From Escherichia coli (GTDB lineage Bacteria > Pseudomonadota > Gammaproteobacteria > Enterobacterales > Enterobacteriaceae): a DNA stretch of 64,000 nucleotides. Where the stretch lies: the NCBI RefSeq assembly GCF_003334305.1, contig NZ_QOWS01000026.1; one strand, given 5' to 3'. A model generated the notes under the pieces. That model saw nothing but the letters and a program-made list of their open reading frames with translations, was not told the DNA's origin and ran no database searches. Positions 12,283 to 17,166 of this stretch are shown in pieces. How positions within the stretch are numbered: position 1 is the first letter of the stretch; the number at the start of each line of letters is the position of its first letter. The translations under genes were made by a program, and so were the position numbers.

Positions 12283-13342
12283 GTTACTGCAACAGTTGTG
12301 CGAAGCCAGCGCCGTCAGCGGCGATGAACAGGAAGTTCGCGACATTCTGATAAACACGCTGGAACCTTGCGTTAATGAAATCACCTTTGATGGTCTGGGC
12401 AGCTTTGTTGCCCGTAAGGGGAATAAAGGTCCAAAAGTTGCCGTTGTCGGGCATATGGATGAAGTCGGCTTTATGGTCACCCACATCGACGAGAGCGGTT
12501 TTCTGCGCTTCACCACCATTGGCGGCTGGTGGAATCAGTCGATGCTCAACCACCGGGTAACCATACGCACACACAAGGGATTTAAAATCCCTGGTGTGAT
12601 TGGTTCCGTCGCGCCTCATGCGTTAACGGAAAAGCAAAAGCAACAACCGCTGTCATTTGATGAGATGTTCATTGATATTGGCGCGAACAGTCGCGAAGAA
12701 GCGGAAAAGCGCGGCGTTGAAATTGGCGATTTTATTAGCCCGGAAGCCAATTTTGCCTGCTGGGGCGAAGATAAAGTAGTCGGAAAGGCGCTGGATAACC
12801 GCATCGGCTGCGCGATGATGGCGGAGCTACTACAGACAGTAAATAACCCAGAAATTACGCTGTACGGCGTTGGCAGTGTGGAAGAAGAAGTTGGGCTACG
12901 CGGGGCACAAACCTCGGCGGAACACATTAAACCGGATGTGGTGATTGTGCTGGATACCGCTGTCGCAGGTGATGTTCCGGGCATTGATAACATTAAATAC
13001 CCGCTGAAACTGGGCCAGGGGCCGGGGCTGATGCTGTTTGACAAGCGCTACTTCCCCAACCAGAAACTGGTAGCAGCGTTTAAAAACTGTGCCACGCAGA
13101 ATGATTTACCGCTGCAATTTTCCACCATGAAAACCGGAGCGACGGATGGCGGGCGCTACAACGTGATGGGCGGCGGGCGTCCGGTTGTCGCGCTGTGTCT
13201 GCCAACTCGTTATCTGCACGCCAACAGCGGTATGATTTCAAAAGCCGATTACGATGCTCTGCTCACGCTGATACGGGGTTTTCTGACCACCTTAACTGCG
13301 GAGAAAGTCAACGCGTTTAGCCAGTTCCGTCAGGTGGATTAA
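12272..13342 (+). CDS. frvX: M42-family peptidase/endoglucanase-like FrvX
   Basis: 356 aa from ATG 12272 (MNIELLQQLCEASAVSGDEQEVRDIL...), overlapping frvB stop by 11 nt. Confidence 0.92.
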   Translation: MNIELLQQLCEASAVSGDEQEVRDILINTLEPCVNEITFDGLGSFVARKGNKGPKVAVVGHMDEVGFMVTHIDESGFLRFTTIGGWWNQSMLNHRVTIRTHKGFKIPGVIGSVAPHALTEKQKQQPLSFDEMFIDIGANSREEAEKRGVEIGDFISPEANFACWGEDKVVGKALDNRIGCAMMAELLQTVNNPEITLYGVGSVEEEVGLRGAQTSAEHIKPDVVIVLDTAVAGDVPGIDNIKYPLKLGQGPGLMLFDKRYFPNQKLVAAFKNCATQNDLPLQFSTMKTGATDGGRYNVMGGGRPVVALCLPTRYLHANSGMISKADYDALLTLIRGFLTTLTAEKVNAFSQFRQVD

Positions 13343-15090
13343 TGCTAAACGAACGCCAGTTAAAGATTGTCGATCTGCTGGAGCAACAGCCGCGCACGCC
13401 TGGTGAGCTGGCGCAACAGACTGGCGTTTCAGGCAGGACCATCCTGCGTGATATTGACTATCTCAACTTTACCCTTAACGGCAAAGCCCGCATTTCCGCC
13501 AGTGGTAGTGCGGGCTATCAGCTGGAAATCTTCGAGCGCCGCAGCTTTTTTCAGTTGCTGCAAAAGCACGATAACGACGATCGGCTGCTGGCACTGTTAT
13601 TACTGAATACCTTTACTCCCCGTGCGCAACTCGCCTCGGCGCTTAATTTGCCAGAAACGTGGGTCGCAGAGCGTCTGCCCCGGTTAAAACAGCGTTATGA
13701 ACGCGCTTGTTGCCTGGCCAGCCGCCCCGGTTTGGGCCATTTCATTGATGAGACAGAAGAGAAGCGCGTTATCTTGCTGGCGAACTTGCTGCGCAAAGAT
13801 CCGTTTTTAATTCCGCTGGCGGGCGTAACACGAGACAACCTTCAGCATTTATCCACGGCCTGCGACAACCAACACCGCTGGCCGCTCATGCAGGGTGATT
13901 ATCTCTCCAGCCTGATTCTGGCGATTTACGCCCTGCGTAATCAACTGACCGATGAGTGGCCGCAATATCCCGGTGACGAGATAAAACAAATCGTTGAACA
14001 TAGCGGTCTGTTTCTTGGTGATAACGCTGTAAGAACCCTGACAGGTTTGATAGAGAAACAGCATCAGCAAGCGCAGATAATTTCTGCCGATAATGTGCAG
14101 CGGTTGCTGCAAAGGGTGCCGGGCATCGCGTCATTGAATATTATTGATACGCAGCTGGTTGAGAACATTACCGGGCATTTATTACGTTGCCTTGCCGCAC
14201 CGGTGTGGATTGCTGAGCACCGCCAAAGCAGCATGAATAACCTGAAAGCCGCCTGGCCTGCGGCCTTTGATATGAGTCTGCACTTTATTACGCTACTGCG
14301 TGAACAGCTCGATATTCCCCTTTTCGACAGCGATCTGATCGGTTTGTATTTTGCCTGTGCGCTGGAACGGCATCAAAACGAACGCCAGCCGATCATTTTG
14401 CTCTCGGACCAGAACGCGATTGCCACTATTAATCAGCTCGCCATTGAGCGCGATGTTTTACATTGTCGGGTGATTATTGCCCGTAGCTTAAGCGAACTTG
14501 TTGCCATTCGCGAAGAGATTGAGCCGTTATTGATCATTAACAACAGCCATTATTTACTGGATGACGCGGTAAATAATTACATCACCGTAAAAAATATCAT
14601 TACGGCTGCCGGTATCGAACAAATAAAACATTTTCTGGCGACGGCATTTATTCGCCAACAGCCGGAGCGTTTTTTCTCTGCCCCCGGAAGTTTTCATTAT
14701 TCGAATGTACGCGGTGAAAGCTGGCAACATATTACCCGGCAAATTTGTGCGCAATTAGTCGCACAACACCATATTACCGCCGATGAAGCACAACGCATCA
14801 TCGCCCGCGAAGGCGAAGGTGAAAACCTGATTGTTAATCGCCTCGCCATCCCACATTGCTGGAGCGAACAGGAGCGACGTTTTCGTGGATTTTTTATTAC
14901 CCTCGCCCAACCAGTTGAGGTGAATAACGAAGTCATTAACCATGTCTTGATCGCCTGCGCCGCCGCCGATGCGCGTCATGAGCTAAAAATATTTAGCTAT
15001 CTGGCAAGCGTATTGTGTCAGCATCCGGCAGAGGTTATTGCCGGGTTAACAGGATATGAGGCATTTATGGAGTTACTTCACAAGGGGTGA
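13342..15090 (+). CDS. frvR: frv operon transcriptional regulator
   Basis: 582 aa ORF MLNERQLKIVDLLEQQPRTPGELAQQTGVSGRTILRDIDYL..., N-terminal HTH; start overlaps frvX stop (TAATG). Confidence 0.92.
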   Translation: MLNERQLKIVDLLEQQPRTPGELAQQTGVSGRTILRDIDYLNFTLNGKARISASGSAGYQLEIFERRSFFQLLQKHDNDDRLLALLLLNTFTPRAQLASALNLPETWVAERLPRLKQRYERACCLASRPGLGHFIDETEEKRVILLANLLRKDPFLIPLAGVTRDNLQHLSTACDNQHRWPLMQGDYLSSLILAIYALRNQLTDEWPQYPGDEIKQIVEHSGLFLGDNAVRTLTGLIEKQHQQAQIISADNVQRLLQRVPGIASLNIIDTQLVENITGHLLRCLAAPVWIAEHRQSSMNNLKAAWPAAFDMSLHFITLLREQLDIPLFDSDLIGLYFACALERHQNERQPIILLSDQNAIATINQLAIERDVLHCRVIIARSLSELVAIREEIEPLLIINNSHYLLDDAVNNYITVKNIITAAGIEQIKHFLATAFIRQQPERFFSAPGSFHYSNVRGESWQHITRQICAQLVAQHHITADEAQRIIAREGEGENLIVNRLAIPHCWSEQERRFRGFFITLAQPVEVNNEVINHVLIACAAADARHELKIFSYLASVLCQHPAEVIAGLTGYEAFMELLHKG

Positions 15091-15091
15091 A

Positions 15092-15120
15092 CTGTGTCGG
15101 ATGCGCCGCATCCGACACTG
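15092..15120. terminator. Bidirectional terminator hairpin between convergent frvR and yiiG
   Basis: Perfect inverted repeat gtgtcggatgcg/cgcatccgacac immediately after frvR stop and before yiiG stop. Confidence 0.6.
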
Positions 15121-15139
15121 CATTTATCATCAAAAACGT

Positions 15140-16180
15140 TTAACGCAGGCTATTATAGTCATCAACCATTTCGTTGTACTCGCGTAATGCTCTCGGGAAA
15201 GAGTCGTCGACCATCCAGCTTGAGTTTGCGTCCTGCAGTTGCTCTTTATCCCAGTCAGAGTACGGGACTTTATCTCTGACGCGGCGAACGTATTTTTTAG
15301 CCTCGAGTTGATACTGGCCTGCCGAATTAATAAACGAGAAATTCATGCCGCCTTTATCCGCTTCTTTGGCCTGCGCCACCAGCGTTTCCAGTTCAGACAC
15401 TTTCTTCATTGCCGCTTCTGCATCAAACTTATCTTGCGATATCAGGTTATTAATTTGTTTCGCTGAAATCATGACTGCCAGAGAGTAATAGTGGAATGTT
15501 TTCCCTTCTCTTTCTTCAATATTTTTCAGTTCCGCAAGCTGGCGCTTATCGTTAATTTCCTGAATCGCCGCATGATAAGATTCTGCTACAGGTTCAAAGG
15601 CTTCCAGATTTTTTAAGAATGTCTGGTGCAGCGTTTTCCCTTTCGCAAACGCATCGTCTTTATAATTTTCCTGGGTGTAATATTTATCCATTTCGTTAAT
15701 GGTATTACCCAACGCCACGGCAGCATCGATATAACTCACCGCCACGCCATCAATTGGTTGCAGCGCAGGCGTTAACGCCACAGCACTTTTTACGCCTTTT
15801 TCACACTCAGCGAGGTTGGATTCACTAATGCCGTAGATGCCATAAACAGTACGCTCTTCACCGGTAGGCCCCTGTTTAAAATCTTTCAGCCAGTCAGCAT
15901 AACGCGCCAGACTGCTCTGTACAGGGATCTGTAACTTGTTATAGCACTTGATATAGACATCCATTTTTTCGTCGAAAACCGCTTGTTCATCGACCACCGG
16001 TTGCGCAGGTGTTTCAGGTTTAGCTTCTGCTTTTGCAACGGGAGCTTCAGGAGCTGGTGCGGCAGGTTGACTATTGGCAGGCGGGGGCGTTTCTGTTTCG
16101 GCTTTTTTATCATCACAACCCGTCAGACCGAGGGCCATGATGGCGACTATAATAGCGGAAGATAATAAATTCCTTTTCAT
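15140..16180 (-). CDS. yiiG: DUF3829-type lipoprotein YiiG
   Basis: 346 aa ORF MKRNLLSSAIIVAIMALGLTGCDDKK...; lipobox LTGC, then a Pro/Ala-rich linker. Confidence 0.9.
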   Translation of the reverse strand: MKRNLLSSAIIVAIMALGLTGCDDKKAETETPPPANSQPAAPAPEAPVAKAEAKPETPAQPVVDEQAVFDEKMDVYIKCYNKLQIPVQSSLARYADWLKDFKQGPTGEERTVYGIYGISESNLAECEKGVKSAVALTPALQPIDGVAVSYIDAAVALGNTINEMDKYYTQENYKDDAFAKGKTLHQTFLKNLEAFEPVAESYHAAIQEINDKRQLAELKNIEEREGKTFHYYSLAVMISAKQINNLISQDKFDAEAAMKKVSELETLVAQAKEADKGGMNFSFINSAGQYQLEAKKYVRRVRDKVPYSDWDKEQLQDANSSWMVDDSFPRALREYNEMVDDYNSLR

Positions 16181-16288
16181 TTAATTGCCTTATAAATATA
16201 TAGATAAGAGAATGAACATAATAAATGAAAAAAGAAAACACCACTACACGCGTTTTATTTATAAATAAAATAATAAAATTCACGAAAT

Positions 16289-16332
16289 GAATAAGTCCTG
16301 CAATTTAATATATATCGCAGGACTTATTTTAA
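16289..16332 (-). terminator. fdhD terminator hairpin
   Basis: Inverted repeat aataagtcctgc/gcaggacttatt with AT-rich flanks directly downstream of fdhD stop. Confidence 0.5.
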
Positions 16333-17166
16333 TTAATTGCTCAAACGCTGCGGATGGGTATAAACCGTTGCCCGACCCGGTTTACAAAAACCTACCAGTG
16401 TCAGATTACAGCGCTCAGCCACTTCTACAGCAAGCGTGGTCGCGGCAGACACCGCAAACAAAATCTCTACGCCGCACATCGCCGACTTTTGCACCATTTC
16501 ATAACTGGCACGACTGGAAACCAGTACCGCACCTTGCTGCCAGCTTTCCCCTTCTTGTGACCGGCGGCCTAACAGTTTGTCCAGCGCCACATGGCGACCC
16601 ACATCTTCATGCCCGCCGACCAGTTCGCCAGATGGCAACATCCAGGCAGCGGCGTGAGTACAACCAGTCAGTTGCCCCACTGGCTGAAAATCGTTGAGAT
16701 GACGTAATGCATCATCCAGTTTGTTGAGATCAAACGTCTGGGTGAACGGTAGCGGCTGCACCGGTTTTCCGATGTCATTAAGTTGCTCCACGCCGCATAC
16801 GCCACAGCCCGTACGTCCCGCCAGCGCCCGGCGGCGCTCCTTCAACCCCATAAAGCGGCGGCTGGAAAGCTCAATTTGTACTTCAAGACCATTACAGGAA
16901 GGAACGACATCCATGCCGAAGATATCGCGCGGACTTTCTATTATCCCCTCGGAAAGCGAAAAACCGAGCGCAAAGTACTCAAGGTCTTTGGGCGACGCCA
17001 TCATCACCACATGCGAAATGCCGTTGTAGACCAGCGCAACGGGAACTTCTTCCGCGACCTCATCTAACCGTGGGTGTTGTAAATCATCACGCCGCCATAA
17101 CTCAATTTGACGAACACCTGTGATATTTGTCACATTTTCGATTTCTTTTCGCTGTGTTTTTTTCAC
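16333..17166 (-). CDS. fdhD: Formate dehydrogenase accessory sulfurtransferase
   Basis: 277 aa [31 protein letters not shown]..., recognised as FdhD. Confidence 0.95.

Follow-up and report, generated by a model that had tools for sequence, protein, structure and literature searches.

What the proline- and alanine-rich segment of the YiiG lipoprotein is, and whether its length differs between strains, are the questions raised by yiiG of Escherichia coli. They were addressed with the copy of the gene carried by a 64,000-nucleotide stretch of contig NZ_QOWS01000026.1, referred to here as the window, and with its relatives in complete genomes and protein collections.

yiiG encodes a full-length DUF3829 protein

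The yiiG open reading frame of the window is intact and matches, at 100% DNA identity, the yiiG gene in E. coli EC11, which bears the RefSeq label "YiiG family protein." The gene sits 3' of fdhD (16333-17166), on the same strand, and is convergent with frvR (13342-15090), the layout also found in K-12. A match to yiiG was found in 5,387 of 5,426 complete E. coli genomes. The gene and its globular domain are placed as follows.

15140..16180, minus strand: yiiG coding sequence, 346 amino acids plus stop, short-linker allele (open reading frame list, ATG start)
15143..15991, minus strand: DUF3829/YiiG all-alpha domain, residues 64-346, 10 helices (Pfam, AlphaFold, conservation in 137 sequences)

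The first-pass annotation described the domain as DUF3829-like. The affiliation stands, but "like" is too weak, since residues 68-344 match PF12889 (DUF3829) over model positions 2-285 of 285 with an E value of 3.8e-103, making YiiG a true full-length member. The family comprises 955 representatives at 50% identity among 1.84 billion proteins. Matches to YiiG in the AFDB were exclusively DUF3829/YiiG proteins, all unnamed, and the literature terms YiiG just an "uncharacterized lipoprotein" (PMC11742677). The sole NCBIfam result, to the mycobacterial lipoprotein LppK (NF053526), scored 18.8 bits against a curated cut-off of 125, spanned only the signal peptide and the low-complexity region, and was rejected.

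In an AlphaFold2 model, ten helices cover residues 65-343 with pLDDT values above 95, mostly 97 to 99. An alignment of 137 sequences revealed invariant or near-invariant residues (Y94, Y167, Y168, D176, and N336), two conserved motifs (GPTGKE and YYxQENYKDDxFAKGKxLH, the latter spanning Y167-H185), and a conserved cysteine pair, Cys79/Cys126. From their conservation, the two cysteines could form a periplasmic disulfide, and YYxQENYKDDxFAKGKxLH may be a ligand-binding or active site. A PDB sequence search with YiiG found no relative, and a fold search returned only generic four-helix bundles and three Bacteroides DUF3829-like structures, 3IEE (BF3319), 3RH3 (BT_1908), and 4YJW (BVU_3067), as weak matches (TM 0.27-0.34, 12-15% identity). 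These three are structural-genomics entries without an assigned function and therefore offer no mechanistic lead. Gene neighborhood was likewise rejected as a route to function: four distant homologues (from Xenorhabdus, Ottowia, an alpha-proteobacterial contig, and an enteric MAG) have no common neighbors, and the linkage of fdhD and yiiG is confined to enterics.

The segment before the domain is of low complexity and predicted to be disordered

15992..16114, minus strand: 41-amino-acid Pro/Ala/Glu/Lys-rich low-complexity linker, residues 23-63, predicted disordered (composition, entropy, pLDDT, indel site)

The linker that joins Cys22 to the domain reads DDKKAETETPPPANSQPAAPAPEAPVAKAEAKPETPAQPVV. 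The peptide quoted in the first-pass annotation, ETETPPPANSQPAAPAPEAPVAKAEAKPETPAQP, is found verbatim in the translation; the Pro/Ala/Glu-rich composition given there stands, while the length of roughly 45 amino acids does not, the measured linker being slightly shorter at 41. Proline and alanine each account for 24% of it, and proline makes up 10 of 41 linker residues versus 7 of 283 domain residues (Fisher P = 4e-6). Its Shannon entropy is 2.93 bits versus 3.80 ± 0.12 bits for 41-residue windows of the domain. The low complexity of the linker is far beyond chance.

Disorder prediction, a check suggested in the first-pass annotation, is in agreement with this picture. In the AlphaFold2 model, which used a 137-member family alignment, residues 23-63 lack secondary structure at pLDDT values of about 47-72, and helix 1 starts at residue 65, leaving 42 unstructured residues after Cys22. 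According to the model, YiiG would therefore have a long disordered linker in the sense of El Rayes et al., whose definition asks for more than 22 residues ahead of the first secondary-structure element, counted from the Cys. The linker is thus modeled as a disordered tether, with low pLDDT serving as a proxy for disorder, and a Pro-rich segment of this kind could also take an extended polyproline-II form. We conclude that yiiG is a known, annotated, ordinary gene and that the segment is a normal lipoprotein tether with no anomaly. The practical value of this result is chiefly annotation hygiene.

The N terminus predicts a lipid anchor in the inner membrane

16118..16180, minus strand: signal peptide, residues 1-21, MKRNLLSSAIIVAIMALGLTG, with a positive n-region (K2, R3) and a hydrophobic core (translation; pLDDT <50)
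16115..16126, minus strand: lipobox L-T-G-C, with Cys22 as predicted lipidated mature residue 1 (translation)
16109..16114, minus strand: Asp23-Asp24, mature positions +2 and +3, putative Lol-avoidance (inner-membrane retention) signal (translation and published rule)

The N terminus of YiiG, MKRNLLSSAIIVAIMALG-LTGC, has the form of a standard lipoprotein signal peptide whose lipobox contains Cys22. It has the sequence features of a signal peptidase II substrate, namely, a [LVI][ASTVI][GAS]C lipobox with its Cys within approximately residues 15 to 35, and it agrees with the PROSITE PS51257-type pattern as well. The signal peptide and LTGC lipobox in the translation back the earlier statement that YiiG is, as far as its sequence predicts, a lipoprotein.

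Immediately after the lipidated Cys stands an Asp-Asp pair that went unremarked in the first-pass annotation. Asp at +2 with Asp, Glu, or Gln at +3 leads to inner-membrane retention of E. coli lipoproteins (bioRxiv 10.1101/2021.01.05.425367), and Cys22-Asp23-Asp24 conforms to this rule. The pair is invariant in all Escherichia and Salmonella orthologues examined. Because Asp-Asp adjoins Cys22, YiiG should escape Lol extraction and remain in the inner membrane, so that an inner-membrane anchor is predicted from the +2/+3 signal. YiiG was absent from the supplements of a sucrose-gradient membrane-localization proteome study.

The same N terminus occurs in AcrA, an established inner-membrane lipoprotein whose LTGCDDK we take to be identical to YiiG in the lipobox and at +2, +3, and +4; AcrA differs from YiiG in being a membrane-fusion protein, its fold is unrelated, and its flexible segment is much shorter. 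Long disordered linkers are common among lipoproteins but are typical of outer-membrane ones and have been tied to outer-membrane trafficking, and of eight validated inner-membrane lipoproteins, DcrB alone possesses such a linker (bioRxiv 10.1101/2021.01.05.425367). The +2/+3 rule has exceptions, and the retention signal and the long linker of YiiG point in somewhat different directions. A long tether on a predicted inner-membrane anchor is an uncommon combination, of which YiiG would be the second example after DcrB. The two proteins share an inner-membrane retention signal and a linker of more than 22 residues (bioRxiv 10.1101/2021.01.05.425367) but have unrelated globular domains, and the location of DcrB is experimentally established, whereas that of YiiG is predicted. 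YiiG thus joins DcrB as a candidate for a rare class, inner-membrane lipoproteins with a long disordered linker, and such a class bears on models that assign linkers to outer-membrane sorting.

Linker length differs between strains and genera

The first-pass annotation predicted that the linker varies in length between strains. Alignment bears this out, with linkers of 37 to 46 amino acids in Escherichia and 50 to 72 in Salmonella, and rather than being invariant among E. coli strains, the linker is 5 residues longer in K-12 than in the window. YiiG of K-12 (DH1) has 351 residues, with an additional EAKPT in the linker. The K-12 DNA reads CTGAAGC-GAAACCTA-CTGAAGC versus a single CTGAAGC in the window, a 15-bp indel bounded by 7-bp direct repeats.

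16044..16050, minus strand: single CTGAAGC at the junction of the 15-bp deletion (DNA alignments; junction probe)

The linker is 46 amino acids long in the outgroups E. marmotae, E. albertii, and E. fergusonii. Since all of them share this length, the short allele of the window is a derived 15-bp deletion. With junction probes, the short junction (window type, 346 amino acids) was found in 1,531 and the long junction (K-12 type, 351 amino acids) in 2,031 of the 5,426 complete genomes. The number of genomes with at least 99% identity to the window across the first 400 bp, 1,536, is close to the short-junction count, which argues for a single tight haplotype behind the short allele rather than repeated origins. 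Alleles were also sampled from 60 evenly spaced genomes among the 3,912 that retain the 5' part of yiiG; 23 were short, 33 carried the additional 15 bp, 2 carried an additional 3 bp, 1 had a 12-bp deletion in the domain, and 1 was a fragment. The variant with the 12-bp deletion (H79, 388 bp) was rejected as a linker allele because the deletion falls outside the first 260 bp of the gene and hence in the domain. Variation within E. coli is therefore modest and not hypervariable; in essence, two alleles are common, a few others are rare, and each is a tight haplotype. As each common allele forms a tight haplotype, this is an inherited polymorphism and not a hypermutable tract.

Linker lengths across genera were taken from protein clusters at 90% identity. 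Linkers of 37, 41, 42, 44, and 46 amino acids were found in Escherichia and of 50, 58, 61, and 72 in Salmonella, while the domain is 283 amino acids long and gap-free in every cluster of the two genera compared for linker length. At least seven indel events are required, all of them within the linker, which makes up about 14% of the mature length; the probability of this under uniform placement is about 1e-6. In Escherichia and Salmonella, yiiG thus supplies a clean natural series of linker lengths, from 37 to 72 residues, on an invariant domain.

A search of the E. coli linker DNA for tandem repeats found none, only short dispersed direct repeats. Without a tandem repeat, the E. coli gene does not qualify as a VNTR or contingency-type locus, whereas the Salmonella orthologue does. 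In Salmonella enterica GCA_016435165.1 (L007 4172-4273), a 33-bp tandem repeat is present in 3.1 copies with 92% matches. The unit encodes PAAKPETATQx, and one, two, or three copies give proteins of 355, 366, or 377 amino acids.

Substitutions follow another pattern. Within Escherichia, identity is 72 to 98% in the linker versus 76 to 84% in the domain, and between Escherichia and Salmonella it is 44 to 54% in the linker and 71 to 73% in the domain. Judged from these alignments, the linker evolves mainly through indels, with substitution conservation at about the level of the domain within Escherichia. The linker motifs QPAxPAP and KPETPAQP persist from Escherichia to Salmonella, and the N-terminal DDKKAETE and C-terminal PAQPVV of the linker are nearly invariant within Escherichia. 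This conservation hints at a constraint beyond that on a purely passive spacer.

The wider family was surveyed through 204 members in which the domain N terminus is present, 126 of them with a recognizable lipobox. Among these 126, the linker has a median length of 41 amino acids (range, 6 to 86). In members with an ordinary signal peptide, mostly alpha-proteobacterial-looking, the domain begins at about residue 27 without a linker. In these members, the linker therefore goes together with the lipid anchor, as a tether would.

A tolerant tether is the favored explanation for the linker and its alleles

The observations are probably best explained jointly by a lipoprotein with a disordered tether, slippage-type indels that are tolerated in it, and a derived 15-bp allele. 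The signal peptide would be cleaved at the lipobox and Cys22 lipidated, yielding a periplasmic lipoprotein; Asp-Asp would block Lol extraction, keeping YiiG in the outer leaflet of the inner membrane. The 41-residue Pro/Ala/Glu/Lys tether would then hold the 283-residue helical DUF3829 domain off the membrane. Having no fold to preserve, the tether would tolerate in-frame indels, which would be accepted essentially nowhere else in YiiG. The repetitive linker DNA, with its GAAGC, AAACCT, and CCTG motifs, would favor replication slippage between short direct repeats, a mechanism suggested by the repeats that flank the indels. In the window allele, a derived 15-bp deletion between CTGAAGC repeats strips EAKPT from the ancestral 46-residue linker, and this allele is inherited as a single haplotype by the approximately 28% of sequenced E. 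coli that carry it. In Salmonella, the corresponding linker region has turned into a genuine 33-bp tandem repeat of one to three copies.

Comparable tethers are known. RcsF, Pal, NlpD, and LpoB resemble YiiG in that tens of unstructured residues tether the folded domain to the lipidated Cys; unlike YiiG, they are Lol substrates without Asp at +2, and their linkers assist trafficking to the outer membrane. Pro/Ala/Glu(/Lys)-rich spacers near a membrane anchor also occur in the envelope, as the AAEAP regions of Neisseria H.8, Lip, and Laz and the Glu-Pro/Lys-Pro spacer of TonB. The Neisseria proteins differ from YiiG in being outer-membrane or surface proteins with true pentapeptide repeats and TonB differs in being anchored by a transmembrane helix; none of them has a DUF3829 domain.

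The length of the linker matters for Pal (PMC12826056), and the linker of YiiG might by analogy be a molecular ruler whose adaptive length alleles tune the reach of the DUF3829 domain toward a partner or the peptidoglycan, in line with proposals made for Pal and RcsF. Length-dependent disordered lipoprotein linkers are documented for both proteins (PMC12826056; bioRxiv 10.1101/2021.01.05.425367), the linker sequence is fairly conserved within Escherichia, and both common alleles occur at high frequency. However, these alleles differ by just 5 of 46 residues, each is a single haplotype of the kind that neutral inheritance would produce, and linker length across the family runs from 6 to 86 amino acids with no fixed value. 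Approximately 27% of strains also lack the YiiG protein entirely. We regard a ruler as improbable. About equally doubtful is the proposal that the linker bears a short linear motif, such as QPAxPAP or KPETPAQP, that docks a periplasmic partner and leaves the spacer role secondary. Both motifs are retained between Escherichia and Salmonella despite a linker identity of 44 to 54%, and the ends of the linker, DDKKAETE and PAQPVV, are near-invariant within Escherichia, but the short evolutionary distance might account for that conservation. Distant lipobox-bearing members are similar only in composition and conserve no such motif, and the deletion in the window and the Salmonella repeat both alter the spacing around the motifs in genes that are still kept.

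Still less probable, and in our judgment very unlikely, is that YiiG is an outer-membrane or surface-exposed protein whose linker varies under immune or phage pressure, as in the AAEAP-repeat lipoproteins H.8, Laz, and Lip of Neisseria. The composition of the linker is like that of the AAEAP region, and the 11-amino-acid repeat varies in copy number in Salmonella. Long disordered linkers are, moreover, typical of outer-membrane lipoproteins (bioRxiv 10.1101/2021.01.05.425367). Against this, Asp at +2 and +3, the canonical E. coli inner-membrane retention signal, is invariant in the enteric orthologues, alleles are few and a tandem repeat is absent in E. coli, and substitutions in the linker are not raised within Escherichia. 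The reading we favor thus remains that of an inner-membrane tether, as predicted from the N terminus, in which indels are tolerated.

A common 5' deletion truncates yiiG in about a quarter of strains

Widespread loss of the 5' part of yiiG, in about a quarter of strains, went unremarked in the first-pass annotation. The first 400 bp of the gene are kept in 3,912 of the 5,387 genomes with any match, so that about 1,475 genomes (27%) carry a 5'-truncated pseudogene. Carriers include Nissle 1917, the type strain ATCC 11775, and an ST69 isolate. In the loci compared (L003, L004, L013, and L014, around position 1500), the deletion junction is identical in GN25, Nissle 1917, the ST69 isolate, and JNE120442 and reads ...GTAGTGGCGTT/AACGCC..., with the slash marking the junction. 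It lies at an 8-bp microhomology, GTGGCGTT, with one copy upstream of the gene and another at gene position 400. A junction probe detected the deletion in at least 1,047 genomes, a lower bound because single-nucleotide polymorphisms break the 28-base seed. Approximately 463 to 478 bp in size, the deletion takes out the promoter region, signal peptide, and linker, together with some 70 residues from the start of the domain; what is left of the gene is marked as a pseudogene in RefSeq. The corresponding sites in the window are as follows.

16237-16244, minus strand: GTGGTGTT, corresponding to the upstream breakpoint of the common 5' deletion (alignment with deleted alleles)
15774..15781, minus strand: GTGGCGTT at gene position 400, downstream breakpoint of the common 5' deletion (alignment)
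15711-15718: second in-gene copy of GTGGCGTT, 63 bp from the copy at 15774-15781; both copies encode AVAL

The spacing of 63 bp between the two in-gene copies explains a rarer in-frame allele of 330 amino acids that lacks 21 residues (P0009 and P0010, the latter on 29 contigs). Rare deletions within the domain (P0004, P0014, and P0016) cluster near these in-gene copies.

Several further observations concern disruption of the gene. In E. coli FT130 (L006 3001-4370), IS1A is inserted about 40 bp into yiiG. The yiiG remnants of Nissle 1917 (L004 2409-3488) and the ST69 isolate (L013 2545-3624) are also cut at the 3' end, and in both genomes a carbohydrate porin gene stands at the place of frvR, indicating that these lineages lack the frv operon at this position.

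The literature fits a picture in which yiiG is dispensable and perhaps costly. The yiiG region is a replicated hotspot of mobile-element insertion in E. coli isolate collections (bioRxiv 10.1101/527788), mutations in the yiiG promoter and start codon were selected under antibiotics in E. coli (PMC11742677), and a YiiG-family gene of Stenotrophomonas acquired frameshifts or a missense mutation in populations evolved under three antibiotics (PMC11047544). On the basis of these three reports and of the one ancient 5' deletion in approximately 27% of genomes, YiiG could be viewed as an envelope protein on a long inner-membrane tether that is dispensable and costly, so that its loss has been favored repeatedly, with a domain that affects permeability or stress signaling and linker alleles that modulate the effect. 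We consider this fuller scenario unlikely. The frequent loss of yiiG in nature and in laboratory evolution provides a handle on DUF3829 function.

Flanking DNA, internal sites, and a divergent allele

16181..16332, minus strand: very AT-rich gap between fdhD and yiiG, where the yiiG promoter and ribosome-binding site must lie (sequence)
15094..15118, no strand assigned: strong hairpin with an 11-bp stem within the 49 bp that separate the convergent stop codons of frvR and yiiG (-22.4 kcal/mol, z = -3.4)

Scans for promoter and terminator consensus sequences gave no match in 15000-16400, and the fdhD-yiiG gap held no match to the sigma-70 consensus. Resistance mutations are said to fall in the annotated yiiG promoter (PMC11742677). 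The hairpin at 15094..15118 has no U-tract on either side, which is why the terminator scan did not call it, and it looks REP-like. An Rfam search in and around yiiG returned one match, at chance level (E = 0.67). Within the gene, gcgcgttatgctgac (window 15893-15907, minus strand), which encodes ARYAD, is a listed MarA ChIP-seq target in enterotoxigenic E. coli (ETEC) (PMC5684230).

A divergent yiiG allele of 347 amino acids, with 83 to 86% DNA identity, is carried by about 147 genomes. In one of them, E. coli 30821_1#280 (L012 2638-6781), two genes are inserted between fdhD and yiiG; the insertion was inspected in this single genome and is only apparently common to all of the approximately 147. 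It encodes a 611-amino-acid ATP-binding protein and a 768-amino-acid hypothetical protein. PADLOC gave only weak TmtA-like matches for the two genes, over the N terminus of the ATPase; being too weak, these matches led us to set aside an identification as a defense system. The two-gene insertion could be an uncharacterized defense-type island.
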